From a virus (lineage: Duplodnaviria; Heunggongvirae; Uroviricota; Caudoviricetes), in the IMG/VR virus record IMGVR_UViG_2534681675_000020: DNA of 11,067 nt. The stretch is one strand, 5' to 3'. The notes below the pieces were generated by a model. That model saw nothing but the letters and a program-made list of their open reading frames with translations. It ran no database searches and was not told the origin of the DNA. The position numbers and the translations under genes were made by a program. Numbering within the stretch: position 1 is the first letter of the stretch; the number at the start of each line of letters is the position of its first letter. Of this stretch, positions 1 through 11,067 are shown in pieces.

Positions 1-372
1 TTACTTCCTGCGTTTATCCCGCTTTGTATGTCCGTGCTGAATGCCCCGCAGTGGATCTTCTTTTTTCAGGTCGATCCCCATGTCCGTTAGTGTTTTTGTG
101 GCGGCGGTTCTTATGGCACAAATCAGGTCTCTTTCCGGTTCCCGGGTTATGGTTGCCTTCCGGATACATGCCGTTCGTCGTTCCGTTACATACTGACGCG
201 CTTCATCACTTGCCGCCTGTTTCAGTAACTCACCCCAGCGATTAGCCGCCCGTCGCCATAAACCTTTCGCTTCCAGTTCTTCCGCTTTGTCATCATGCAC
301 CATAAGCATAATCCCATTGATACCTGTTAAATCTGAATGGTTGGTTTCCGTTCTTTTGATAATTTCCCTCAT
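1..372 (-). CDS. PerC-family-like small transcriptional activator (putative)
   Basis: Complete ORF (ATG at 370-372, stop at 1-3), 123 aa. The motif DDKAEELEAKGLWRRAANRWGELL resembles, from memory, PerC/Pch-type regulators found on prophage-like islands. An internal start at M22 (coordinate 309) is possible. No clear SD. Confidence 0.4.
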   Translation of the reverse strand: MREIIKRTETNHSDLTGINGIMLMVHDDKAEELEAKGLWRRAANRWGELLKQAASDEARQYVTERRTACIRKATITREPERDLICAIRTAATKTLTDMGIDLKKEDPLRGIQHGHTKRDKRRK

Positions 373-505
373 AGCTTATTGTATGACAGTACTGTCCCAC
401 AATAAGGAATCACACATGAGAATGACCAGGCACAAAAAACAGATTCTTGAACTTTACAAACCTGAGTATCGCGATTGGGTGCGGGTGGAGGCCGGAGATC
501 CGCCT

Positions 506-1577
506 TGGATTTGCCCCTATATTTCCAGACATCTGTTATCACTTAACCCATTACAAGCCCGCTGCCGCAGATATTCCCGTGGCGAGCGATAACCCAGCGC
601 ACTATGCGGATGCCATTCGTTATAATGCTCGAACGCCTCTGCAAGGTTCTTTGCTGCCGTTAACCCGTCTGGTTTGGGCATGATACTGATGTAGTCACGC
701 TTTATCGTTTTCACGAAGCTCTCTGCTATTCCGTTACTCTCCGGACTCCGCACCGCCGTGTTCTTCGGTTCAAGTCCCAACATCCGGGCGAACTGGCGTG
801 TTTCATTAGCCCGGTAGCATGAACCATTATCCGTCAGCCACTCCACTGGAGACGACGGAAGATCGTTGCCGAAGCGGCGTTCCACCGCTCCCAGCATGAC
901 GTCCTGTACTGTTTCACTGTTGAAGCCGCCGGTAGTGACCGCCCAGTGCAGTGCCTCACGATCACAGCAGTCCAGCGCGAACGTGACACGCAGTCTCTCT
1001 CCGTTATCACAGCAGAACTCGAACCCGTCAGAGCACCATCGCTGATTGCTTTCTTTCACGGCCACTCTGCCTGTATGTGCCCGTTTCGATGGCGGTACAG
1101 CAGGTTTTCGCTCAAGCAACAGCGCATTCTGGCGCATGATCCGGTAAACACGTTTGGCATTGATCGCAGGCATACCATCAAGTTCTGCCTGTCTGCGAAG
1201 CAGCGCCCATACCCGACGATAACCATACGTGGGCAGCTCTCCGATAACATGGTGTATACGGAGAAGCACATCCGTATCATCAGTGTGACGACTGCGGCGG
1301 CCATCCATCCAGTCATCGGTTCGTCTGAGAATGACGTGCAACTGCGCACGCGACACCCGGAGACAACGGCTGACTAAGCTTACTCCCCATCCCCGGGCAA
1401 TAAGGGCGCGTGCGCTATCCACTTTTTTGCCCGTCCATATTCAACGGCTTCTTTGAGGAGTTCATTTTCCATCGTTTTCTTGCCGAGCAGGCGCTGGAGT
1501 TCTTTAATCTGCTTCATGGCGGCAGCAAGTTCAGAGGCAGGAACAACCTGTTCTCCGGCGGCGACAGCAGTAAGCGT
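506..1577 (-). mobile_element. IS2 remnant: right end (IRR) intact, left ~250 bp (IRL and 5' part of insC) absent
   Basis: Terminal sequence TGGATTTGCCCCTATATTTCCAGACATCTGTTATCACTTAACC at 506-548 matches the remembered IS2 IRR. insD is intact but insC homology stops near 1575 and no IRL sequence is present in the window. Confidence 0.85.
517..1422 (-). CDS. insD: IS2 transposase OrfB (InsD)
   Basis: 301-aa translation with a DDE-type core and the C-terminus ...[24 protein letters not shown], matching IS2 InsD as remembered. The A6G slippery motif (minus-strand CAAAAAAG, + coordinates 1422-1429) is retained at the insC/insD overlap. Confidence 0.9.
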
Positions 1578-1592
1578 TCGCCGTGCCAGCAT
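1380..1592 (-). pseudogene. insC: IS2 insC (OrfA), 5'-truncated
   Basis: Translation from L (1572-1574) onward, [64 protein letters not shown], matches the C-terminal half of IS2 InsC. The N-terminal HTH part is missing and an in-frame TGA lies a few codons upstream of the fortuitous ATG at 1592. Confidence 0.8.
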
Positions 1593-1688
1593 GGAGCAAT
1601 CAGCCGATACAGAACAGTAAAGCCGATAACTTGTTAATCACTCGCAGCAATGCATGTGATTTGTGCACACTTTCGGTTAACTGGTTCG

Positions 1689-1785
1689 ATGTCCGGTTTT
1701 AGTGTCTGTTTTTTGCGCATGTCCGGTTCATGGAAAGCATGTTTTTATATTTTTCATATGGTTAACTTACAGAGAAACCGGACAT
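1689..1785. repeat. three copies of a 10-bp motif ATGTCCGGTT (two direct, one inverted)
   Basis: ATGTCCGGTT at 1689-1698 and 1719-1728; inverted copy AACCGGACAT at 1776-1785. Lies between the IS2 truncation point and the terminator of the capsid operon. Confidence 0.5.
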
Positions 1786-1865
1786 GGATCCCGAAAAATT
1801 TTCATAAATAGTGAAAACGCGCGAGGTCGCCGCCCCGTAACAGGTCCATATGCCGGAAAGGACCC

Positions 1866-1890
1866 GCAAAAAAGCCGGATTTCTCCGGCC
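1866..1890 (-). terminator. rho-independent terminator of the capsid operon
   Basis: Hairpin GCCGGA-TTTC-TCCGGC (1874-1889) preceded on the + strand by A6 (1868-1873), i.e. a hairpin followed by a U-run on the minus strand. It lies 6 nt after the stop of the 137-aa gene. Confidence 0.5.
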
Positions 1891-1895
1891 TTGTC

Positions 1896-2309
1896 TCAGA
1901 TGGTTTTCAGTATGCGATCAATGTCGCCGTCATCGCCCGGGTTTCTGCCATCGTATGCCATGCCAGCTGATACGGCTTGTGGGCTGTGCATGTCCATAAA
2001 GTTTTCAAAGGCTGCGGTAAGCTCTGGTGCAACCTTCTGGCGTTCCTGTTCTATGGTCATGTTCAGGATGTTTTTAGCCGTATCAACATCAATACAAGGC
2101 ACGTTTGCCATTGCACGTAACAGCGGCTGATAGTCGTCAGATTCATGAAGCGACATAATCGCATCAGCGCGCGGCTTGTCCTGTTCTTCCAGTTTGTTAA
2201 GTTGATATATAGCTTCGTAGGTTGATAGACATCTGTCAGCCATTGCCCGCGCTTCAGCTTTAAATTTACTCGCCAGCGGTAGCGCCATGATACTTTCATT
2301 CGTTGCCAT
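1896..2309 (-). CDS. hypothetical acidic protein, 137 aa (last gene of capsid operon)
   Basis: ATG at 2307-2309 preceded by AGGGGGG; the ORF is open upstream to 2420 but that part overlaps the decoration gene. Starts 13 nt after the decoration gene stop. No recognisable motif. Confidence 0.45.
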   Translation of the reverse strand: MATNESIMALPLASKFKAEARAMADRCLSTYEAIYQLNKLEEQDKPRADAIMSLHESDDYQPLLRAMANVPCIDVDTAKNILNMTIEQERQKVAPELTAAFENFMDMHSPQAVSAGMAYDGRNPGDDGDIDRILKTI

Positions 2310-2322
2310 CGTTCCCCCCTGC

Positions 2323-2658
2323 TTATCGCGCCAGCGGCTGAACAGATACACCAGAACCCGCAAAGGCGGCACATTTTTTCGCGTCGGTGTCGACGCTCTC
2401 AGGCCAGTTAACGGCGGCAATATTGAATATCCCCGTCTTGTAACACTGTGCTGATTTCTGCGTTGACGTGTCCACGGGATACGCCGTCAGATAAACAGCC
2501 TTGCCAGATTCCTGACCATCCCACGGCTTAAATTCGCCATTGTCCGCCAGCATCAGCGGGGTAAATTCCTGAATAACGCCAGCATCAGCGGCAAAATGTA
2601 CCAGCGTCGTGGCAACCTGCTGACTGCCTGCAAATAACTCAATGTATGGAGTGTCCAT
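2323..2658 (-). CDS. head decoration protein, lambda gpD-like
   Basis: 111 aa. Segments TPLMLADNGEFKPWDG and YKTGIFNIAAVNWPESVDTDAKKCAAFAGSGVSV align with remembered lambda gpD ([52 protein letters not shown]). GGGGGA RBS. Confidence 0.7.
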   Translation of the reverse strand: MDTPYIELFAGSQQVATTLVHFAADAGVIQEFTPLMLADNGEFKPWDGQESGKAVYLTAYPVDTSTQKSAQCYKTGIFNIAAVNWPESVDTDAKKCAAFAGSGVSVQPLAR

Positions 2659-2669
2659 AGAATCCCCCG

Positions 2670-3725
2670 TTAACCAATTTTGACGGTAACAAATTTGCGA
2701 ATATCTGCCGGAACCGGCTGCGGTGCGCTGTGCGTCTGCACGTACTCAATCGCCGGATCGCCGTCCTCAATCCAGTTTTTCGGGTAAAACATGTTTTGCG
2801 TTGCGCCCGTTCTGACCGCTTCCTGATCCATAATCGCACCATAGGCCACCAGCCCTTTATTGTTGGTGTTGCCCAGGACCAGCAAATCAGGCTCAAGGAA
2901 ATATTTTTCGGTGCCGTCGCTGTCAGTGTATTTGCCGGAATAGACGATAAGGGCAATATCGCCCAGATATCCTTTAAAGCTCACCACTTCGCCCAGGTTT
3001 TTACAGGCCAGCTCTGCGGAGGACTCTGAACCACGGGAAAGATCGTACAGTTCGCGGAATTTTTTAAAGCTGCGTAACGTTCGCCATACCTCAGCGCCCA
3101 TGATCATGACGTTGGCGGGGCAACATGCTTGATCCGCATAAAGCTCGATATCATAGATTGGATCGTGGGTTTCTTTGTCCTGCTCGGACCATTTACGGCC
3201 TTTGGCCTGCTCTATGATGTTTTTTTCCGGTATCTTCCAGTCGATTTCATAGCGTTCTATGCCTTCGCCCTCAATGATGTTTTTTCCGGTCGTTATCGCA
3301 TTCACCGCCAGCCATTCCACGCGCGCTTTAATCGCGTTTATCTGGCGGCGCATGTTGCCAGTAATCAGGCGCATACGGCGATAGGTTGGGTCATTAAGCT
3401 GTGCCGGATCTTCTCCAGCCATACGTATGATGGTTTTCGTTGGATCGATTTCGTGCTTCGGCTTCATGTATCCAGGTTTAATCGTGCTGGTTTCGTACCC
3501 TTTATCGCGCTGGACCTGACTACCCACCATAGGCGAACAAAACGCCGACATCGTAACCTCTTCAATGTCCAGGGTGTCCAGCATGATGTTTTGGGTGTTG
3601 AATGTCGCCACGTTCGGGAAAAACAGCGTGGTAAACAGCGGACTGAATTTAAATTCCGCAATATCCCCGCGATTCAGGTACATGAAAAGCTGGTTAGTGT
3701 TAAGTGCCGTTGCTTTGCCTGCCAT
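2670..3725 (-). CDS. major capsid protein, lambda gpE-like
   Basis: 351 aa (lambda gpE is 341 aa). Motifs FKFSPLFTTLFF, GYMKPKHEIDP, DPAQLNDPTYRRMR, YPKNWIEDGDPA and the C-terminus ADIRKFVTVKIG are collinear with remembered gpE. The start overlaps the upstream stop (TAATG). Confidence 0.85.
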   Translation of the reverse strand: MAGKATALNTNQLFMYLNRGDIAEFKFSPLFTTLFFPNVATFNTQNIMLDTLDIEEVTMSAFCSPMVGSQVQRDKGYETSTIKPGYMKPKHEIDPTKTIIRMAGEDPAQLNDPTYRRMRLITGNMRRQINAIKARVEWLAVNAITTGKNIIEGEGIERYEIDWKIPEKNIIEQAKGRKWSEQDKETHDPIYDIELYADQACCPANVMIMGAEVWRTLRSFKKFRELYDLSRGSESSAELACKNLGEVVSFKGYLGDIALIVYSGKYTDSDGTEKYFLEPDLLVLGNTNNKGLVAYGAIMDQEAVRTGATQNMFYPKNWIEDGDPAIEYVQTHSAPQPVPADIRKFVTVKIG

Positions 3726-3931
3726 TATTCACCCCCATAATTTTTATGCATCCCAAGCGCCGCAAGTAAATAAGAGCGTACAAGTGAACCTATCGACGGC
3801 TCCGGCGTCATCAGCGGATCCAGTCCAGCCGCCACGCCAGCCTCATAGTTTTTTTTGTGGCGCTGCTTGAGCACCTCCACGATTTCGGGGCTTATGTACA
3901 CCGAAACACCGCCTTTTTTCTCTTCAGCCAT
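3725..3931 (-). CDS. hypothetical protein, 68 aa, translationally coupled to the capsid gene
   Basis: ATG at 3929-3931 with AGAGGA RBS 10 nt upstream; its stop overlaps the capsid start codon. No recognisable motif. Confidence 0.5.
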   Translation of the reverse strand: MAEEKKGGVSVYISPEIVEVLKQRHKKNYEAGVAAGLDPLMTPEPSIGSLVRSYLLAALGMHKNYGGE

Positions 3932-3958
3932 AGTAAGAAATTCCTCTTTGACTTAAAA

Positions 3959-4016
3959 AATCAGAACTGGATGTTCATCCAGTTCTGATTATAATCATGA
4001 TTGCATTTTATGCAAT
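3959..4016. promoter_or_regulatory. promoter/operator region of the capsid operon: 32-bp palindrome plus a second 7-3-7 palindrome around a palindromic -10 (ATTATAAT)
   Basis: Near-perfect palindrome AATCAGAACTGGATG-TT-CATCCAGTTCTGATT (3959-3990). ATTATAAT at 3988-3995 reads TATAAT on both strands. ATTGCAT-TTT-ATGCAAT at 4000-4016 overlaps a minus-strand -35-like TTGCAT with 16-nt spacing to the -10. Confidence 0.4.
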
Positions 4017-4095
4017 GATGTTGAGTTGTGTTGCAAATTATGAAATGATGATCCCGATCATGTGTGTCAGTGCACCAAAAAGCCTCATATGCAAA

Positions 4096-4132
4096 AGCCC
4101 GATAAGCCACCTCTGACCTTATCGGGCTTTTT
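4096..4132. terminator. bidirectional rho-independent terminator-like hairpin
   Basis: Stem AGCCCGATAAG (4096-4106) / CTTATCGGGCT (4118-4128) with an 11-nt loop, followed by T5 on the + strand and flanked by A4 on the other side. Confidence 0.45.
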
Positions 4133-4307
4133 TATCTGCCTGCAAAGATGTCGAACAAAAATTAACCACAACCATCATCTTTTTTGCATCAAAACAATTA
4201 AAAACAATAAATTACGCTCATGATGATGATGACGATAAAATCACAAAAATGCGCTTTTTTCCGCGCCTCCCGCCCCGTGTTCAGGCCCACCCCGCCAGGA
4301 GGACCCG

Positions 4308-4331
4308 TAAAAAAGCCGGATTGCTCCGGCT
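4308..4331 (-). terminator. rho-independent terminator after ssb
   Basis: Hairpin GCCGGA-TTGC-TCCGGC (4315-4330) preceded on the + strand by A6 (4309-4314), 17 nt after the SSB stop. Nearly identical to the terminator cassette at 1866-1890. Confidence 0.5.
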
Positions 4332-4346
4332 TCTGTCACTCGTCGC

Positions 4347-4769
4347 TTAAAACGGTATGTTATCCCCGTACGGATCATCATTCCCCGCCTGTTGTTTTGC
4401 CCTGTTCAGCGCGTCAGTAGCCTGGCCCTGTTGACCTTTTTTGCCGCCCAGTCGCGCCGTTCGCGCACTGATTACACTGTCTGCGATAACCTGCCAGCCC
4501 TGCCGCGTTTCTCCGTTCTGCCCAGTCCACTGGCTGATCTGCATGTTACCCGCCACGCTCAGGAGTTCACCCTTGCGGTGCCTTTCCAGTGCTTCGGCCT
4601 GTCTGCCAAATGCCAGGACGGATAACCACATCGTCGCCGTTCCGTCATCTGCCTGGCTGCACGGAAGGGGGACCGCCATACGCGCCAGCGTCATCGGTGT
4701 GCCCTTGCTGGTCTGTTTTACCTGCGGGTCGTCCACCAGCCGCCCGTAAGCGGCTATCTGTGCTGTCAT
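4347..4769 (-). CDS. ssb: single-stranded DNA-binding protein (SSB family)
   Basis: 140 aa. OB-fold region WLSVLAFGRQAEALERHRKGELLSVAGNMQISQWTGQNGETRQGWQVIA parallels E. coli SSB ([50 protein letters not shown]); Gly/Gln-rich linker and C-terminal acidic tip ...DDPYGDNIPF (SSB ends DDDIPF). GGAGAGG RBS. Confidence 0.8.
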   Translation of the reverse strand: MTAQIAAYGRLVDDPQVKQTSKGTPMTLARMAVPLPCSQADDGTATMWLSVLAFGRQAEALERHRKGELLSVAGNMQISQWTGQNGETRQGWQVIADSVISARTARLGGKKGQQGQATDALNRAKQQAGNDDPYGDNIPF

Positions 4770-5044
4770 GATTCCACCTCTCCGGTTTTAACGTTGATTG
4801 TTGTTACCTGTTCCGCTTCGGCAATCTCCCGCTCTGTCAGCGTGGCAAAATTTGCCGCCGTCGTGGTCATGAATGCGCTTATCAGGTCGGGATGTGCTTT
4901 CGCGTATCCTTCCCCCGCGTGGCGGTCTATCGTTCTGATTGCCACCTTTAAAGCGTGCTCTGTCATGTCTAACGCGCGATATTTCGGTTCTGTTCTGTCT
5001 CTGCGTTTTTTGAGTGATTTATTAAATTTCCCTGAAGTGTGCAT
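4766..5044 (-). CDS. hypothetical protein, 92 aa, coupled to ssb
   Basis: ATG at 5042-5044 with GAGGGGG upstream; its stop overlaps the ssb start (ATGA). Basic N-terminus; no recognisable motif. Confidence 0.45.
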   Translation of the reverse strand: MHTSGKFNKSLKKRRDRTEPKYRALDMTEHALKVAIRTIDRHAGEGYAKAHPDLISAFMTTTAANFATLTEREIAEAEQVTTINVKTGEVES

Positions 5045-5092
5045 ATTTATTTTTACCCCCTCGTTTAAAAAGTTTTGAGTTGTGCCTCCCCT

Positions 5093-5319
5093 TGTCTACC
5101 TTATCTACCTTAGTGGCCCTCATGCCAGTAATGGCGCGGCTTTCAGCGGGGTAGAGTGCTTTTATCCACTATCTACCCCGTGTCTACCTCCCTGTCTGAT
5201 TCAGGTAAAATCAGGTAGAGAGGGTAGATAGTGGGTAGATAGTAAAAAAAGGCTATCTACATAACTTAATGCACTGAATTAAATGTATTTTTCTTTACTC
5301 AGGTAGACAGGGTAGACAG
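5093..5319. repeat. iteron cluster (GGTAGA[CGT]AG-type, both orientations); putative origin of replication
   Basis: At least 11 copies: TCTACC-type at 5093-5100, 5102-5109, 5170-5177, 5181-5188, 5254-5261; GGTAGA-type at 5149-5158, 5214-5220, 5223-5230, 5234-5240, 5302-5310, 5311-5319. An AT-rich stretch lies at 5262-5300. It starts 14 bp after the primase stop. Confidence 0.6.
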
Positions 5320-5332
5320 CAATTACAAAAAA

Positions 5333-7087
5333 TTATAAAAACGCGTCGCACTCGTCTGTTGTTATTGCGTTAGTCTGCGTTACTCCCTTAACTTTCCGCG
5401 TAATATATTCATGTCCGTAAACTTTCGCGGCTGGCTTCATAGCCTTGCCAAAGTCATTTACGTTTAGCGGTTTGCTCCTGCCTGCGTACGCCATAAACGC
5501 CAGATAGACGCGATAAAGGCTGTTCCTGGTCGTGTACTTCACTGAATCACCACCGCCACCCATCATCAGGCCGCGCGCTTCCTCCAGAAAATTCAGGAAC
5601 TGGCAAAACTCAATAACCGGATCCGTCTGTTGCTTTATTGCCAGTGCTTCATCACCGTCACGCTGTTCCAGTAGTAAAGCCCGTGCCTTCTCAGGGTCGG
5701 TAAAGTTCGCCAGCAATCGGCGGATAATGACAGGGATTTCAGCCGCAATCTTTTCCGGTAGCTCCCTGTCTTTTTCGGCCTCACTGACGATATTGTCGAA
5801 ACGGAAAATTACGCGACGACGTGACACACCTCCGGCCCGTTCGGTGAATATCATCGGGTTATTGTTGGTAGCCAGCACCACCGCCCTGATTACCGCCGTA
5901 AAACGCTTTTCATATTTCGGGTTAATTTCCACGGGGTCGCCGCCCGTGATTTTCTTGATGCCCGTTCCTTCGCCTGTATATTTCGGCTGGTCAGCCAGGA
6001 CGATAAGACGACTCCCGACAACCTGCGCACGTCCACCAGCATCATCAAGCGATGTCATCTCCGCGCTCACCGTGTTCTGTTTCCCTGCCAGAAGGCTGGC
6101 TATGTGCGTGAATGTACTTTTACCGCTCCCGCCGTCTCCGGTGGCCTCAATAAACATCTGCCAGTCGTACCGGTTCGCCATAATCATGTACAGCGCGGCA
6201 CATATACGCATCATCTTGCGCGGGTCTTTTCCGGCTACGTGCTCAAGCCATTTATGAAAGTTTGGCGCGTTGTCGCGGATATTCTCCCCTGGTGCTGGTG
6301 GCGTGTACTCAATACCGTTGTGCGTGGTGATCCAGTTCTCCGGCGTGTGCGGGGAAAATTCCCCCGTTTTCAGGTCAAGCGCACCATTGGCGAACGGCAG
6401 CAAATCGCCGGACGGCTCGCCCATTGGTTCGGCAATAACTTTTAACGCTTCCACGGCGTTATTGATTACGCGCTTGCTGAAAGTGGCCCTGTGCTCTGAA
6501 TAGATCGCCACCATTTCGCGGCTAAGTTCCATTGTGCTGACCGGACACCATACCCCGCCGCGCCATACGTAAACGATTTCACTTTCAGGATGTACGCAAA
6601 CGCCATCAAAGCGATCGGCAAGCAGCTGCGCGCGCTCACTGTCCGCCATCTGCGAAAGTTGCGCCTTTTGCTTTACCGGAAGCTCAATGACCAGACCATC
6701 AGAAAGATTCTGTCGCTCACGGGCCAGATATTCGCGCCAGTTCTGCACCTCTTGGCCGTGCATACCCTCAGGATAAAAATTTGCATCCTGTACGCCTGCC
6801 GCCGCCAGCTTCTGGCCAATCGCCTTTATCATTACTGGCGCAAGATATCCGGCCCTGAATATGCGCACGGATTTTCTGCCTTCCGGCACAATTTGCAGCT
6901 TATCCAGTTCTGATAACTGCTGCTCCCCAAGCCACACAGGAGGCTCATTATCTCCGGCCAGACGCGCGTCATGTTCCTGCCATTGTTTTGCGTGTGACCA
7001 GGCATCACTACCCGCAAAAATAATGACTTCTGTTTCTTTGTGTTTTATGCCGCGTGACTGCTGTTTTACGTTCGGTGCCAGTTTCAT
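5333..7087 (-). CDS. P4-family DNA primase/helicase (replication initiator)
   Basis: 584 aa with Walker A GDGGSGKST, a downstream Walker B-like LIVLAD and a primase-like N-terminal half; architecture typical of phage/plasmid P4-alpha-type primases. Start overlaps the upstream stop (ATGA). Confidence 0.85.
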   Translation of the reverse strand: MKLAPNVKQQSRGIKHKETEVIIFAGSDAWSHAKQWQEHDARLAGDNEPPVWLGEQQLSELDKLQIVPEGRKSVRIFRAGYLAPVMIKAIGQKLAAAGVQDANFYPEGMHGQEVQNWREYLARERQNLSDGLVIELPVKQKAQLSQMADSERAQLLADRFDGVCVHPESEIVYVWRGGVWCPVSTMELSREMVAIYSEHRATFSKRVINNAVEALKVIAEPMGEPSGDLLPFANGALDLKTGEFSPHTPENWITTHNGIEYTPPAPGENIRDNAPNFHKWLEHVAGKDPRKMMRICAALYMIMANRYDWQMFIEATGDGGSGKSTFTHIASLLAGKQNTVSAEMTSLDDAGGRAQVVGSRLIVLADQPKYTGEGTGIKKITGGDPVEINPKYEKRFTAVIRAVVLATNNNPMIFTERAGGVSRRRVIFRFDNIVSEAEKDRELPEKIAAEIPVIIRRLLANFTDPEKARALLLEQRDGDEALAIKQQTDPVIEFCQFLNFLEEARGLMMGGGGDSVKYTTRNSLYRVYLAFMAYAGRSKPLNVNDFGKAMKPAAKVYGHEYITRKVKGVTQTNAITTDECDAFL

Positions 7088-7383
7088 TTTTTACCCCTGA
7101 ATCCGTTAATCATGGTTTTCAGCTTCTGGATGTTTGCCCGTGCCCTGGCGTTGCTGGTGGGCACGTTATGCGGCGCGGTCTGTACCAGAGAAAAATCACG
7201 CCGGAACTGATAAACAGGCATCACGCAATCATATTCGTAACCTTCACGGCGGTAAGTTACGCACCGTCCCGCCACGCTTTTAATCGTTACCGTGCCGCCG
7301 TAGTTATCCCGGAAAATATCGCCGGGGCGGATTTCAGGCCGAGCGAGGCCACTGGCAGTAAAGCCAGAATTTTTCTGTTTCAT
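7084..7383 (-). CDS. hypothetical protein, 99 aa, coupled to primase
   Basis: ATG at 7381-7383 with GGAGAA RBS; its stop overlaps the primase ATG. No recognisable motif. Confidence 0.5.
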   Translation of the reverse strand: MKQKNSGFTASGLARPEIRPGDIFRDNYGGTVTIKSVAGRCVTYRREGYEYDCVMPVYQFRRDFSLVQTAPHNVPTSNARARANIQKLKTMINGFRGKK

Positions 7384-7388
7384 GGTTT

Positions 7389-7616
7389 TTATTCTCCGGT
7401 GTGATGCGCTTTATTATTCTCGTGAATTGCCATCACTGTATTTAATTCGTTAATTACTGGCGTTAATAATGTGTGCACGGCAGAAAACATCATGGGATAT
7501 GATTCATCGCCATTTTCCGGCACTTCCATTAACTTAAGTAATAATGCCTCCATTTCCTTTGCGCGGATTAATGCATTCTCAGAATGAATAAGAACATTAA
7601 AGGGTATTTTATGCAT
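7389..7616 (-). CDS. hypothetical protein, 75 aa (AT-rich gene)
   Basis: Preferred start ATG at 7614-7616 (MHKIPF...) with GGGAGA about 9 nt upstream; this start overlaps the stop of the upstream gene by 8 nt (ATGCATAA). The track start at 7652 lies inside the upstream gene. Locally AT-rich by eye. Confidence 0.45.
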   Translation of the reverse strand: MHKIPFNVLIHSENALIRAKEMEALLLKLMEVPENGDESYPMMFSAVHTLLTPVINELNTVMAIHENNKAHHTGE

Positions 7617-7839
7617 CACACAGTTTCTCCCTGATTCTTTTAGTGTCCTCATTGAGGATGTCTGTAGCTTTTGTCAGTGAGTTTTTGATAATTATTTTTA
7701 TTGTTTTAAATTTTCTTTTGTCGTACTCCGACTGTGATTTCCTCTCCATGATCTCTACCATGCAATTTATATCCACAAGCGCATGTATCAGTACTTTCAA
7801 TGCTTCGCCTGCTGCGTCCGGCGTGTTTTTATTGCACAT
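7609..7839 (-). CDS. hypothetical protein, 76 aa (AT-rich gene)
   Basis: ATG at 7837-7839 (MCNKNTPDAAGE...) preceded by AGGAGG with 5-nt spacing. The track ORF extends to 7881, but that upstream start has no RBS. Confidence 0.5.
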   Translation of the reverse strand: MCNKNTPDAAGEALKVLIHALVDINCMVEIMERKSQSEYDKRKFKTIKIIIKNSLTKATDILNEDTKRIREKLCDA

Positions 7840-8443
7840 GGCGCACCTCCTGACGAATACGGGCGGCGAATACAGCAACACAACCGGACGGGCAACGACT
7901 ACGCGCTTCGCGTTCCGTCCAGGCGGTTACGTGGATGATTTGGGATTCTGACGCGCCAAAGATGATAAAGCGCCAGATAAAGGCAGTTTGAGAATGTACG
8001 AGGGCAGGGATAGTAGCCATGTTGGCAGCCTCTTCGTTAGGTTTAATAAACCCACCGCAGGAAACGCCAATTTCGCTGGCGGTGGACTGTACAGGGTTGG
8101 CGTAACCGGTTAACGAAGAACCCGGCGCGGATTGCTCCGCCCCCATACAGCCCACCATTGATAAGGTGTGACTATCCGGCACAAAAAAACACGCAGGGCG
8201 CGTGTTGTGCGCTTCGTTAAATACCAGGACGCCAATCCCGGCACCAGATTTTGCTGGTGCGGATAAATCATAGCCCTGGCTGGCAATGGCGATCAACTGG
8301 TTTTTCTGGCGTGCTTCCTGTTCGCTGGTGGCCTCAATGGTAATCACGCGCGGTTGTGCTGTGCTCAGGGCGATAAAACGCCAGATATATTTATTCAGGT
8401 TGTGCGAGTCCCGCCCTTGCGGGTGTATGGTATGATTTAACAT
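7829..8443 (-). CDS. hypothetical protein, 204 aa, with a diverged internal repeat; first gene of the leftward early operon
   Basis: ATG at 8441-8443 with GAGG 5 nt upstream; C-terminus overlaps the next gene by 11 nt. N- and C-terminal segments repeat: IWRFIALSTAQPRVITIEATSEQEAR versus IWRFIIFGASESQIIHVTAWTEREAR. It is the C-terminal part of a 423-codon open frame whose upstream part is judged non-coding. Confidence 0.4.
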   Translation of the reverse strand: MLNHTIHPQGRDSHNLNKYIWRFIALSTAQPRVITIEATSEQEARQKNQLIAIASQGYDLSAPAKSGAGIGVLVFNEAHNTRPACFFVPDSHTLSMVGCMGAEQSAPGSSLTGYANPVQSTASEIGVSCGGFIKPNEEAANMATIPALVHSQTAFIWRFIIFGASESQIIHVTAWTEREARSRCPSGCVAVFAARIRQEVRHVQ

Positions 8444-8525
8444 AGCTACCTCGATACTCTCGTTATCGTTGGTGGTTAGAAGCCCGGTTAGTGTTAGCGC
8501 ACTGCCGGGTTTCGTCGTTTCTGCA

Positions 8526-8622
8526 CCTTGTATCAACAAGGTGTAAGACACAATGTAAAATAATAGTGTCTTACACGTCAACCCTTCAAAATAATTTTTT
8601 TTCGTGTATATTGTCTTACACC
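8526..8622. promoter_or_regulatory. divergent control region: three copies of operator motif GTGTAAGACAC plus a sigma70-like promoter for the + strand gene
   Basis: GTGTAAGACAC at 8541-8551, inverted GTGTCTTACAC at 8566-8576, third copy TGTCTTACAC at 8612-8621; small palindrome CCTTG-TATCAA-CAAGG at 8526-8541. -35 TTCAAA (8585-8590), 16-nt spacer, -10 TATATT (8607-8612). Confidence 0.45.
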
Positions 8623-8642
8623 AAAAACATAAGGAGTTAGAC

Positions 8643-8822
8643 ATGGCAACAGGTCCAAAGAATGCAAAATCACAATCTGTAACTGCACGTATTGCCCATG
8701 AAATTATTGAAGGCATGGAAAACGTGAAAGAAGAAGGCGAAAGTACAGGGCAGTTTATAAGTGCAGCCATGCGCGGCGAGATCAAACGCCGCCAGCGCCG
8801 CAAGGCCAAAGAGCAGGAGTAG
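8643..8822 (+). CDS. small DNA-binding-like protein (possible ribbon-helix-helix fold), 59 aa; candidate island regulator
   Basis: ATG at 8643 with AGGAG 6 nt upstream. A short beta-like segment SVTARIAHEII is followed by two predicted helices and a basic tail KRRQRRKAKEQE. It is the only convincing + strand gene in the window. The fold is inferred, not searched. Confidence 0.5.
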   Translation: MATGPKNAKSQSVTARIAHEIIEGMENVKEEGESTGQFISAAMRGEIKRRQRRKAKEQE

Positions 8823-8925
8823 CTCCACCGGAATTTTTTTCCGGTTACGCTTTGCCCACCAGCCGCAAATGTGGCATTGTTGGCTATGCTCATGCGTTGG
8901 GGATAACGTGTAGCTTGTGTCGAGG

Positions 8926-8953
8926 GGCCACCGTAGCGGGTGGCCTTTGTTTT
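8926..8953 (+). terminator. rho-independent terminator
   Basis: Stem GGCCACC (8926-8932) / GGTGGCC (8939-8945), loop GTAGCG, followed by TTTGTTTT. Confidence 0.45.
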
Positions 8954-9049
8954 GCCTGTTATCCGGCAATTGTGGCGCTTCGTCACACGGTTGATATAAT
9001 TCCACTGCACTGATCCATTTTTTTCGCAGCAGGTTAATTGTTCGCAAGG

Positions 9050-9077
9050 GCGCTCCGGCAACGGGGCGCTTTTTGTT
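9050..9077 (+). terminator. rho-independent terminator with GNRA loop
   Basis: 8-bp stem GCGCTCCG / CGGGGCGC with one G-U pair, loop GCAA, followed by TTTTTGTT. Confidence 0.45.
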
Positions 9078-9104
9078 ATGTTCATCGCGTTACGCCTCAC
9101 ACCA

Positions 9105-9311
9105 TTACGCAGCCGTTCCGCGCGCTTCTTCCTCGCGCTCTTTCAGCCAGGCCAGCACTTCATCTTCATACCAGCCAACACGGCGCAGACCGATTTTGAA
9201 GCCTTTCGGGAATTTTCCGGCGTTGATCATGTCCTGTAGCGAACTGTCTGCCTTGATGCGCAGAATATTTTTTACTTCCTGACGGGTAAGAATTTTTCTG
9301 ATTGTTTCCAC
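9105..9311 (-). CDS. alpA: AlpA-family phage transcriptional regulator/excisionase-like protein
   Basis: 68 aa with GTG start at 9309-9311 and GAGG RBS. Motif ...LRIKADSSLQDMINAGKFPKGFKIGLRRVGWYEDEVLAWLKER is typical of the AlpA/Phage_AlpA family (HTH followed by a conserved W). Confidence 0.75.
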   Translation of the reverse strand: METIRKILTRQEVKNILRIKADSSLQDMINAGKFPKGFKIGLRRVGWYEDEVLAWLKEREEEARGTAA

Positions 9312-9375
9312 TATGTTTTACCTCGTTAATCCGGCGTATTCCGGTGATAAATACGGTAAAACAGGGCAGGGCGGG

Positions 9376-9418
9376 AAAAACAGTACCCACCGTTTTAAAA
9401 CGGTACCCACTGTTTTTT
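9376..9418. promoter_or_regulatory. composite palindrome upstream of alpA (possible operator or bidirectional terminator)
   Basis: Perfect 16-bp palindrome ACCGTTTTAAAACGGT (9389-9404) flanked by direct repeats GTACCCAC (9383-9390, 9403-9410) and outer arms AAAAACAGT / ACTGTTTTTT. Confidence 0.35.
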
Positions 9419-9446
9419 ATCTTATTGATTACGCTTTTCTTTCTGC

Positions 9447-9476
9447 AAAAAAATAGCGACCGCAAGGGGCCGCTAT
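9447..9476 (-). terminator. rho-independent terminator after the 80-aa gene
   Basis: Stem ATAGCGACC / GGCCGCTAT (one mismatch), loop GCAAGG, preceded on the + strand by A7 (9447-9453), i.e. a U7 tail on the minus strand. Confidence 0.5.
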
Positions 9477-9481
9477 TGTGA

Positions 9482-9724
9482 TTACCGTTTCCACTTCTTA
9501 GGTCGCCCACCGCATTTAAGGCTGGTGGGCCTCAGCACCTTGTCGATACTTTCAGCCAGATTTTTCGATGCGCCACGCGAGCGCAAAAAACTGACTACCT
9601 CGTGTTTTGTGGGGGCAGTTGATTTGTCTTCCGGATCGTACGTTGACCAGAATTCACGATTTGCCATTAAGGCCAGTTGAAGGCCTTCACCATAGGCAGG
9701 GGATACCTTTTCATTGAAAAACAC
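9482..9724 (-). CDS. hypothetical protein, 80 aa (GTG start)
   Basis: GTG at 9722-9724 preceded by AGGAG with 8-nt spacing; basic C-terminus GGRPKKWKR. Lies between the integrase and alpA. No recognisable motif. Confidence 0.4.
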   Translation of the reverse strand: MFFNEKVSPAYGEGLQLALMANREFWSTYDPEDKSTAPTKHEVVSFLRSRGASKNLAESIDKVLRPTSLKCGGRPKKWKR

Positions 9725-9825
9725 TCGGATAACTCCTTGAATTTCAAGAGTCGGGTCTCTCTGTATATGGTGATTATACGATGGTTTAGCATGGTTTGCA
9801 TCGCTTTTACTGGTTTTTTGTACAG

Positions 9826-11067
9826 TTACACGGCACGGATACCCCTTTTACCACTGGCTATGGTCACTCCGGTTGCTGCGGCCTCTACAAATTCCCCCCA
9901 CCAGCGCATAAGCACCACGCGCTTTTCCAGGTAGTTACTTCGGTTATATGCTCGCCTTACCTCGTTCGTGTCCACGTGTGCGAGTGCGGCCTCGATTACG
10001 TCCGGCTCGAATCCTTCCTCGTTCGCTGCTGTGCTGAATATGGCGCGTAATCCATGAGACACCAGCACGCCAGCGAATCCCATTCGCCGCAATGCTGCGT
10101 TGGCGGTCTGGCTGTTCATAGGCTGCCGTGGGTCTTTCAGGCTAGGGAAAACGTGCTCGCGGTGGTGGCTGATTGGCTTCATGGCCTCCAGTACCGCCAT
10201 AGCCTGACTACAAAGCGGGATAACGTGATCACGCCGCATCTTCATGCGTCCGGCGGGGATCGTCCATTGTTGCGCGTCCATGTCGATTTCTTCCCAGCGT
10301 GCTGACGATGCTTCAACCGGACGGGTTACAGTCAGTAGCTGCCATTCAATCAGTAATCTGGTCTGCCGTTCTGTTGCTGATACGGATAAAGCCTGCATAA
10401 GCTCCGGCAACTGTTCGGGGCGGATTGTTGGCATATGTTTTTTTACAGGGGAGGGGAACGCCTTACGCACATTCATAGCCGGATTGGCATCAATCAGCCC
10501 ACTGTTGGCGGCGTAATCCATTACCTCATTAACGCGCTGTAAAACCCGCTTGAGTGTTTCCAGGTTGCCGCGCTCCTTGATGGGTGTAAGCACCTCAACG
10601 AACCTTCGGGCAGTGAGGGTATCTATTGGCGTGTTGCCGATGAACGGGAATACATATTTATCCAGCGAACGCCAGATGTCTTTAATCGTGTTGGGGGCCA
10701 GATTCTGGCTGATTTTCACCTGGTACCATGCCGCCGCCACATTTTCGAACGTGTTCCCTTGTCTTCGGGCCTCTGCCTCTCGTTTTTTCTTCTCATGGTC
10801 CTGCGGGTCAGTTCCGGCACTGATTAACGTCCTGTACTCGCTACGGCGTTTTCTGGCATCAGCCAGGGAAACATCTTCAAGCGATCCAAAACTCAGCAAT
10901 ATTCTTTTTTTGTCCGATGGTCGGTAGTAGGAAAATCGCCAGAGTTTTGATCCGGACGGTTTTACCAGGAGAAAAAGCCCACCGCCGTCCTGTAGGGTGT
11001 ACTCCTTTTGCGCTGGTCTGGCTGCTTTGATCTGCACTGTGGTTAATGGGGGTGTTTTTCTCGCCAT
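9826..11067 (-). CDS. int: tyrosine recombinase, P4-type integrase
   Basis: 413 aa. N-terminal arm-binding motif LQDGGGLFLLVKPSGSKLWRFSYY; catalytic-domain signatures HGLRAIFSTAANEEGF...AALAH and the tyrosine region RRAYNRSNYLEKR. The start codon sits at the window edge, so the true start could lie beyond it. Confidence 0.9.
   Translation of the reverse strand: MARKTPPLTTVQIKAARPAQKEYTLQDGGGLFLLVKPSGSKLWRFSYYRPSDKKRILLSFGSLEDVSLADARKRRSEYRTLISAGTDPQDHEKKKREAEARRQGNTFENVAAAWYQVKISQNLAPNTIKDIWRSLDKYVFPFIGNTPIDTLTARRFVEVLTPIKERGNLETLKRVLQRVNEVMDYAANSGLIDANPAMNVRKAFPSPVKKHMPTIRPEQLPELMQALSVSATERQTRLLIEWQLLTVTRPVEASSARWEEIDMDAQQWTIPAGRMKMRRDHVIPLCSQAMAVLEAMKPISHHREHVFPSLKDPRQPMNSQTANAALRRMGFAGVLVSHGLRAIFSTAANEEGFEPDVIEAALAHVDTNEVRRAYNRSNYLEKRVVLMRWWGEFVEAAATGVTIASGKRGIRAV

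Follow-up and report, generated by a model that had tools for sequence, protein, structure and literature searches.

The window analyzed here, which is the whole stretch of 11,067 nucleotides held as IMG/VR virus record IMGVR_UViG_2534681675_000020, carries on its minus strand a compact operon of four genes, two of which encode a major capsid protein and a head decoration protein of the types known from phage lambda as gpE and gpD. The element is almost certainly a phage-inducible chromosomal island (PICI) of Escherichia coli of the EcCICFT073 type, and the four-gene block its late or capsid morphogenesis operon. This capsid operon is ordinary for the EcCICFT073 family and has already been described; the window holds a further copy, which is partly damaged. 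The genes of the operon and the terminator that closes it are:

3725-3931, minus strand: 68-amino-acid (aa) protein, homologue of c1498; PHROG 3255 (unknown function)
2670-3725, minus strand: major capsid protein of the lambda gpE type, 351 aa, homologue of c1499; PF03864 Phage_cap_E 1.6e-50, PHROG 29 'major head protein' 4e-106
2323-2658, minus strand: head decoration protein of the lambda gpD type, 111 aa, homologue of c1500; PF02924 HDPD 2.1e-18, PHROG 49 5e-28
1896-2309, minus strand: 137-aa acidic protein, pI 4.6, homologue of c1501, 414-nt gene; C-terminal part of PHROG 53
1868-1892, minus strand: intrinsic terminator directly after the 137-aa gene; dG -17.5 kcal/mol, U6, z -3.5

The TAA stop of the 68-aa gene overlaps the ATG of the capsid gene as TAATG, and intergenic gaps of 11-13 nt within the operon hold GGGGGA-type ribosome-binding sites. 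Compared with lambda, the capsid protein is 43% identical to gpE and the decoration protein 38% to gpD. An earlier note, made from the letters of this DNA, had assigned both proteins in this way, which the Pfam and PHROG matches listed above bear out. Open reading frames and domains on the minus strand also confirm its compact four-gene operon downstream of an integrase/AlpA/primase/ori backbone, and the order in the operon—E, then D, then the 137-aa gene—is real and, for E and D, the reverse of that in lambda. The range of 2323-3931 that it gave for the operon leaves out, however, the 137-aa gene (1896-2309) named in its text, and the arrangement that it took to be unusual is the standard late module of a known PICI family.

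All four proteins have counterparts in the same order in EcCICFT073, the model Gram-negative PICI, with identities of 68% (68-aa protein/c1498), 96% (capsid/c1499), 97% (decoration/c1500), and 92% (137-aa protein/c1501); hence, the operon is already known. The right end of EcCICFT073 continues from the 68-aa, capsid, decoration, and 137-aa genes to RppA (144 aa) and then a 93-aa gene. In the 2018 study of this island (Fillol-Salom et al., PMC6092414), the supplement lists lengths of 68 aa for c1498 and 137 aa for c1501, and the names capsid for c1499 and head decoration for c1500 are given in the main text. 'Capsid morphogenesis' is one of the five core PICI components in SatelliteFinder (PMC10085698), and a capsid gene is present in 21 of 29 reference Gram-negative PICIs (Mageeney et al., PMC10111431). 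Among 5,426 complete E. coli genomes, 598 (~11%) carry the four-gene block—at full length in 590, and mostly with 90-95% nucleotide identity.

The window matches E. coli chromosomes. In three relatives—Nissle 1917, MFDS1022581, and GB089—an island of ~11.5 kb with the same backbone gene order is flanked by tRNA-Pro/yejM on one side and yejO/narP on the other. The window stops short of the attachment sites, and the insertion site is taken from these relatives. The features by which a PICI is recognized are found as an integrase, AlpA, a primase with an iteron origin, a capsid homologue, a size of ~10-15 kb, and, as seen in the relatives, an own attachment site. A TerS homologue or Rpp together with a cos site, which also belongs to this set, is found in part: the cos site is present, whereas rpp is lost here and kept in relatives. 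This absence of rpp is a secondary loss in this copy and not a family difference. No portal, protease, TerL, connector, tail, or lysis genes were found among the open reading frames of the window by Pfam and the other family searches, and the complete islands of the three relatives hold no portal, prohead protease, head–tail connector, or TerL. The element is hence a satellite and not a degraded lambdoid prophage, as the earlier note had suggested; the island flanks in the three relatives are without portal or tail genes. Its list of missing genes stands for portal, protease, TerL, and tail; it does not stand for the scaffold, of which the 137-aa protein is a homologue, and a remnant of a TerS-like rpp gene is present as well. 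Within this family, helper-dependent induction, packaging, and high-frequency transfer have been shown experimentally only for EcCICFT073 (PMC6092414).

Judged by its sequence, the 137-aa protein is a protease-less, stand-alone homologue of the Nu3/gp6-type scaffold domain of lambdoid S49 head proteases. Its second PHROG match is to positions 493-567—the last 75—of PHROG 53 ('head maturation protease', 583 positions), with an E value of 2.6e-8, and an hhalign comparison of its family with the Nu3-type C-terminal domain gives a probability of 95.8% (E 7.5e-9). A hidden Markov model (HMM) of the family, searched against selected head proteins and all six-frame open reading frames of ~105 kb of lambdoid sequence, matches only the C-terminal parts of the S49 proteases of Gifsy-1 (410-480), CFT073 helper phage 4 (416-489), and PhiR12_1, and weakly lambda gpC (359-398). 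With an exhaustive phmmer search, only eight matches were obtained among 1.84 billion representative proteins, including a 195-aa three-repeat Nu3-like protein (E 2.6e-5) and a 134-aa relative of 41% identity. The alignment to the scaffold domain covers one repeat unit, R-x-D-A-I-M-A-L-x-E...P-G-M-T-V-x-x-A-K-x-I-L, and further common features are the motif F-E-x-F-M-x-x-H-S-P-x-A-V-x-x-G, a patch of acidic residues, and similarity at the very end of the C-terminus. The C-terminal region of lambda gene C is the Nu3 scaffolding protein, which is made from an internal in-frame start. Hence, homology to this domain suggests that the island bears a stand-alone Nu3-type scaffold, encoded by a separate gene after the decoration gene and not nested in a protease gene; the island is without an S49 domain. 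Some copies of the 137-aa protein bear the NCBI name 'phage head-tail connector protein.' This label was rejected: Pfam and NCBIfam give no match, and the HMM shows no signal against W, FI, and FII of lambda, Gifsy-1, or CFT073.

The 68-aa protein is a member of a narrow family known from E. coli and Salmonella, and several PICI clades keep its gene immediately before that of the capsid protein. Searches of Pfam, NCBIfam, and PDB sequences, with the protein alone and with a profile, gave no match, nor was a counterpart found when four lambdoid head regions were translated in all six frames. Structure prediction, which the earlier note had named as a check, gave for this protein an AlphaFold2 model with a mean confidence score (pLDDT) of 75 and for the 137-aa protein a poor one, discussed below. 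The 68-aa model consists of an extended segment and helices 15-34 and 47-58 and has no significant fold match in the PDB or BFVD. A ribbon-helix-helix fold was a guess from the strand-helix-helix pattern alone and is not claimed. A role as repressor of the leader palindrome was rejected, as the two do not co-vary—the related islands L002 (MFDS1022581) and L003 encode the same protein as the window next to a different palindrome. The earlier note had proposed both small proteins as scaffold or size-redirecting factors; the homology of the 137-aa protein speaks for its part in this, and no role of the 68-aa protein is supported.

The capsid module represents an old lineage that is confined to satellites and subject to purifying selection. 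In a set of 50,697 phage records, the capsid protein has 172 phage matches, the best at 46% identity and the closest from Gifsy-1, PhiR12 phages, and phage 21, and the 137-aa protein has no tblastn match in the same records. Relatives of the capsid protein, with identities of 52-85%, were found in E. coli, Salmonella, Serratia, and Edwardsiella. Each of the eight sampled contexts is an int-alpA-replicase-E-D island, with three types of replicase (P4-type primase, AAA_25, and DUF927). E precedes D in every sampled satellite, and D precedes E in lambda, Gifsy-1, CFT073 phage 4, and PhiR12_1. Scans of genome contigs for capsid relatives, with the single protein and with a four-sequence alignment, returned no match; the contexts of the relatives came from another look-up. 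Lambdoid helpers harbor two of the relatives, L013 and L018, within gene E or the portal gene. A third, from Salmonella (L017, 2292-9812; 52% capsid identity), is surrounded by tail genes of a P2-like prophage; here, an embedded satellite with capsid genes of the lambda type resides in a prophage of the myovirus type.

Selection on the operon was assessed by the ratio of nonsynonymous to synonymous substitution rates (dN/dS) in pairwise comparisons with the CFT073, Nissle, and Salmonella copies, where dS is saturated against Salmonella: it amounts to 0.09-0.13 for the capsid, 0.09-0.24 for the decoration, 0.15-0.18 for the 137-aa, and 0.18-0.39 for the 68-aa protein. By these values, the genes are functional and not relics. 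Individual copies do decay, as in the island of MFDS1022581, the closest full-length relative, where the capsid gene (L002 10655-11708) is annotated as frameshifted.

Past the terminator, the window bears a cos site, the end of an rpp gene, and an insertion sequence:

1700-1872, minus strand: lambda-type cos site with cosQ-like sequence, cosN, and phage-type cosB
1824-1835, minus strand: exact lambda cosN, GGGCGGCGACCT, ~60 nt past the operon
1567-1620, plus strand: rpp remnant—stop codon and last 17 codons of an RppA-like gene, in opposite orientation to the operon; equal to the CFT073 RppA C-terminus
500-1574, minus strand: truncated IS2 of ~1,075 bp, 99.9% identical to IS2 copies; rve and HTH_21 domains, insD intact, insC without its 5' part

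Over 173-185 nt, the cos site matches the whole cos region of the lambdoid phage PhiR12_1, from Rz to Nu1 (L016 9001-9173), at 93% identity, and the cosB side of cos2 of EcCICFT073 (L004 ~3100-3340) does so likewise. This identity suggests that the second, inverted cos of the PICIs is a genuine phage-type site, which might work without Rpp. In CFT073, Nissle, and the two other relatives, two inverted copies of cosN flank an rpp or terS gene; these correspond to cos1 and cos2 of the 2018 study (PMC6092414). The only cos site of the window is a hybrid, with a cosQ side as in cos1 of EcCICFT073 and a cosB side as in cos2. From the 3' end of rppA to cos2, window 1557-1866 aligns plus/plus with L004 (CFT073) 3030-3340, whereas the operon aligns plus/minus. 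Collinearity with the relatives extends over 1-506 and 1679-7427 and is lost over 507-1678, where IS2 stands in place of 1,158 bp found in L002 and L003. It replaces the rest of rpp, a second cos, and the 93-aa gene. Full-length IS2 measures 1,331 bp, and the present copy is short of ~250 bp at its insC end. An origin of the RppA C-terminal tail from IS2 was rejected, as the IS2 match stops at 1574 and does not include the 17 common residues.

The simplest history is a recombination between the two inverted cos copies, followed by an IS2-associated deletion of most of rpp, one cos, and the 93-aa gene. With rpp destroyed, this copy could no longer retarget helper TerS via Rpp. Its packaging may persist with a helper TerS that recognizes the surviving cosB, as far as sequence can tell; since this cosB is of the phage type, packaging would now depend on the TerS of a PhiR12-like helper. 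The rpp position varies in related islands as well. L002 and L003 encode a 69-aa C-terminal fragment as their Rpp homologue, the Nissle 1917 island (L001 7359-7901) a full-length Nu1-type TerS of 180 aa with 35% identity to lambda Nu1 in the RppA position, and the Salmonella island L008 two Rpp paralogues (141 and 146 aa); in L008, a 79-aa acidic protein replaces the 137-aa gene. On the other side of the operon, a degenerate cos-like copy follows the SSB gene of the window (4250-4335, minus strand), with the same terminator hairpin, a cosQ-like GGGTCCT, and GGGCGGGAGGCG replacing cosN. The capsid operon thereby has cos-like direct repeats on both sides, and these may mark a junction for module exchange.

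At its upstream end, the operon bears the following signals:

3955-4045, minus strand: putative operon promoter/operator region, with palindromes, TATAAT, and a hairpin ahead of the ribosome-binding site
4031-4045, minus strand: palindrome TTTCATAATTTGCAA
4001-4015, minus strand: palindrome TTGCATAAAATGCAA, at the -35 position
3988-3993, minus strand: TATAAT, putative -10 element
3955-3990, minus strand: hairpin with a 14-bp stem and T6; dG -19.8, z -6.3; overlaps the -10 element

Two TT(G/T)CA-N5-T(G/T)CAA palindromes, 30 nt apart, and TATAAT are kept in E. coli and Salmonella PICIs, and an Edwardsiella PICI has a pair of TTGCA-N5-TGCAA palindromes together with TAAAAT as its -10 element. Around these elements, the sequences of the E. 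coli, Salmonella, and Edwardsiella PICIs have diverged. Such conservation amid divergence supports a regulated, putative promoter; a sigma-70 consensus scan did not call one for the operon. The hairpin shows two-sided change in CFT073, L002, and L003 and is absent in more distant PICIs. Hence, of the operator-bearing promoter and terminator that the earlier note had ascribed to the operon, the terminator at 1868-1892 holds and the promoter is putative. The idea that the leader resembles a helper late promoter or tR' was dropped, as blastn of 3932-4145 against the 50,697 phages gave no match.

Taken as a whole, the locus is best explained—with a probability of roughly 0.55—as the late operon of an EcCICFT073-family PICI that in addition provides a shell-building route. 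The shell-building mechanism of a c1498-c1501-type operon is, on its own, a tentative proposal. Upon induction of a lambdoid helper, the island would excise, replicate from its own ori, and express the operon. The capsid, decoration, and Nu3-type proteins might then assemble procapsid shells, either satellite-encoded or mixed, which would use the helper portal, mature by the helper S49 protease, and be filled by the helper terminase at the island cos site. The Rpp of relatives retargets helper TerS to the island cos, and this copy has lost rpp. The shell kit would be an auxiliary, helper-dependent route beside the packaging of phage-length multimers into ordinary helper capsids, in which the island is also packaged without the shell operon (PMC6092414; PMC10530653).

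Several observations weigh against shell building. In EcCICFT073, deletion of c1499 or c1500 left transfer by the resident helper and interference with lambda unchanged, 'no phenotype' is stated for c1499, and island DNA packaged with lambda was phage-sized (PMC6092414). When each post-ori gene was expressed by itself from pBAD18, inhibition of lambda was seen with c1503 (rppA) only (PMC6739421), and a synthetic EcCICFT073 in which cas9 replaced c1498-c1501 was still transduced by phi80 (PMC10530653). The module is hence dispensable for transfer in helper capsids, and any shell role would be at most auxiliary or helper-specific. Moreover, the third gene in more distant clades of the same capsid lineage encodes an AlpA-domain protein and not a scaffold homologue, so that a 'complete shell kit' is not universal. 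The AlphaFold2 model of the 137-aa protein, made without an alignment, is all-helical with a pLDDT of 45, a quality that does not allow a search by fold. The suggestion of the earlier note that the satellite provides or remodels a capsid shell of its own is, in view of the knockouts and the phage-sized DNA, unsupported in this form, and the published knockouts contradict it as an essential function.

The published constructs bear on how these negative results are read. Every marked island in Table 1 of the 2018 study is either c1501::tetA, in or near c1501, or c1499::cat (PMC6092414), and the 2018 negatives on capsid size and transfer thus stem from islands in which the module was disrupted. 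Later work also used wild-type islands, unmarked or rebooted (PMC10530653); in the literature, we came across no measurement of capsid size or particle composition for an island whose c1498-c1501 is intact. A comparable case is given by SaPIs, where cpmAB is conserved yet dispensable for transfer, CpmB has the C-terminal motif of the helper scaffold, and Ccm is a satellite capsid homologue (PMC6893505). A more specific form of the shell-building proposal is doubtful: c1498-c1501 would be a minimal shell kit that builds satellite-specific capsids, possibly smaller than T=7, on the portal of a phage-21/PhiR12-type helper, and would as such be an intermediate between classical and capsid-forming PICIs. 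Its phenotype would have been missed, since the markers are placed in c1501 or c1499 and since, in the scaffold motif, lambda is the helper furthest removed.

The same scaffold motif might instead serve to redirect capsid size or shape, with the satellite capsid protein and the Nu3-like protein co-assembling or competing with the helper capsid protein in a Ccm-like and CpmB-like manner. A natural helper would then give small capsids with room for one or two island genomes of 11 kb but not for the helper genome. The C-terminal motifs of the 137-aa protein are common to helper-type scaffolds—as those of CpmB are to the 80alpha scaffold—and the related PmCI172 has a capsid homologue and makes small capsids; all published size data, moreover, come from islands marked in c1501 or c1499. 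We nevertheless regard size redirection as unlikely: with lambda, only phage-sized DNA was obtained, the c1499 and c1500 deletions gave no relief of interference, single-gene expression did not inhibit lambda, and cos islands have been engineered on the premise that their size is an exact fraction of the helper genome. A role in interference or defence, whereby the shell proteins act as poison subunits or decoys against competing or non-helper lambdoid phages, would fit genes that are under strong purifying selection and yet show no transfer phenotype. Anti-phage functions are frequent in satellites, and a scaffold-like tail could block the helper protease or scaffold incorporation. However, lambda plaques were unaffected by deletion or by single-gene over-expression, and the co-conservation of the decoration protein with the capsid protein would stay unexplained, which renders this role quite unlikely.

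Embedded relatives such as L013 and L018, inside helper gene E and the portal gene, raise the question of whether the genes are back-up copies of helper late genes, captured by recombination—useful mainly to helper-embedded PICIs that interrupt helper E, B, or C, and otherwise neutral cargo. This idea is discussed in PMC10111431, and the cos-like repeats that bracket the operon would suit it. It is highly unlikely all the same: the capsid is at most 46% identical to any phage capsid and therefore not a recent capture, dN/dS of ~0.1 holds also in islands at chromosomal tRNA sites, and excision restores the interrupted helper gene anyway. Lambda-type E, D, and cos together with an IS element could finally be taken for the remnant of an ordinary decayed lambdoid prophage. 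An ~11.5-kb island between tRNA-Pro and yejO with a P4-type primase and AlpA does not look like one, no relative has other head, tail, or lysis genes, the reversed E-D order is common to all sampled satellites and absent from the phages examined, and the genes are under purifying selection. The flanks of the island in the relatives, without head or tail genes, exclude a decayed prophage for practical purposes.

The late operon of an EcCICFT073-family PICI with an added shell-building route, which we prefer, can be set against known systems. EcCICFT073 itself has the same four genes in the same order, the same type of int-alpA-pri-ori backbone, and a lambda-type cos directly after the 137-aa gene. 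Its attachment site, however, is next to phoQ and not at tRNA-Pro/yejM, its PerC gene lies upstream of the operon and not at the distal end, and it has rppA (c1503), two cos sites, and the 93-aa gene where the window has one hybrid cos and has lost the other parts. Capsid-forming PICIs (cf-PICIs, e.g., EcCIEDL933) use the same int, alpA, and rep backbone family and also encode an own capsid protein. They have, in addition, portal, protease, head–tail connectors, HNH, TerS, and TerL genes—none of which is present here—and demonstrably build capsids. Lambda, with C/Nu3-D-E, shares homologous capsid, decoration, and scaffold-domain proteins as well as the cosN. Its order is scaffold-D-E compared with E-D-scaffold here, its W, FI, FII, portal, and protease genes have no counterpart, and the scaffold, which in lambda-type phages is nested in the protease gene and has three repeats, is here a separate gene with one repeat unit.

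CpmB of SaPI1 and Ccm of SaPIbov5 are, like the proteins of the module, scaffold-like and capsid-like satellite proteins that are conserved and dispensable for transfer; they bear no sequence relationship to this module, and size redirection is a demonstrated activity of the SaPI proteins and not of this module. Helper-embedded PICIs of the 11capE type have the same capsid-gene lineage and late zone, whereas the present island lies at a chromosomal tRNA site. With P4-like satellites, the window shares an integrase, AlpA, a P4-type primase, cos packaging by a helper, an Ash-family/Icd-like segment, and a C4-type antisense RNA. P4-like satellites hijack capsids by Sid, Psu, and Delta; the island carries lambda-type capsid genes instead, and its open reading frames gave no match to Sid-, Psu-, or Delta-type families—those downstream of the ori belong to other families or are unmatched.

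All island genes of the window are on the minus strand. Beyond the capsid operon, these are:

4347-11067, minus strand: PICI backbone with int, alpA, DUF4222 gene, primase, ori iterons, 92-aa gene, and SSB
9826-11067, minus strand: int, tyrosine integrase (Pfam Arm-DNA-bind_3, Phage_int_M, Phage_integrase), at one island end
9105-9311, minus strand: alpA; Phage_AlpA 4.5e-8
7084-7383, minus strand: DUF4222 gene
5333-7087, minus strand: P4-type primase; D5_N, DUF5906, Pox_D5
5088-5322: ori iterons GGTAGA(T/C)AG and inverted repeats, predicted origin immediately 3' of the primase
4766-5044, minus strand: 92-aa gene
4347-4769, minus strand: SSB
1-372, minus strand: PerC-family regulator gene, Pfam PerC 7.7e-23; accessory gene at the distal island end, also annotated as PerC in relatives

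In the early region, Rfam identifies isrK (8184-8260, 80 bits) and a C4 antisense RNA (8075-8162, 75 bits) on the minus strand. Both adjoin an Ash-family/Icd-like coding segment in an arrangement that resembles a c4-icd cassette of the P1/P4 type, and the 423-aa open reading frame that spans them (7829-9100) looks spurious. The stretch 7428-8302 is without close counterpart in the three nearest islands, the sole match being 83% over ~105 nt. As its flanks are 98-100% identical, this stretch appears to be a variable accessory slot; its open reading frames of 87 and 90 aa have no Pfam match.

As a discovery, the operon carries little weight, as the family has been mapped, engineered, and catalogued, and its capsid and decoration genes have been knocked out. 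Our analysis adds the scaffold homology of the 137-aa protein, the old satellite-only lineage in E-then-D order, the caveat on the markers, and the cosN and rpp loss of this copy. For the family, this leaves a widespread module, found in ~11% of complete E. coli genomes and with relatives in at least three other genera, that is constrained yet dispensable for laboratory transfer. The c1498-c1501 module may never have been assayed intact. The scaffold homology of its third gene, together with the disrupted state of the published constructs, makes the role of this module directly testable.

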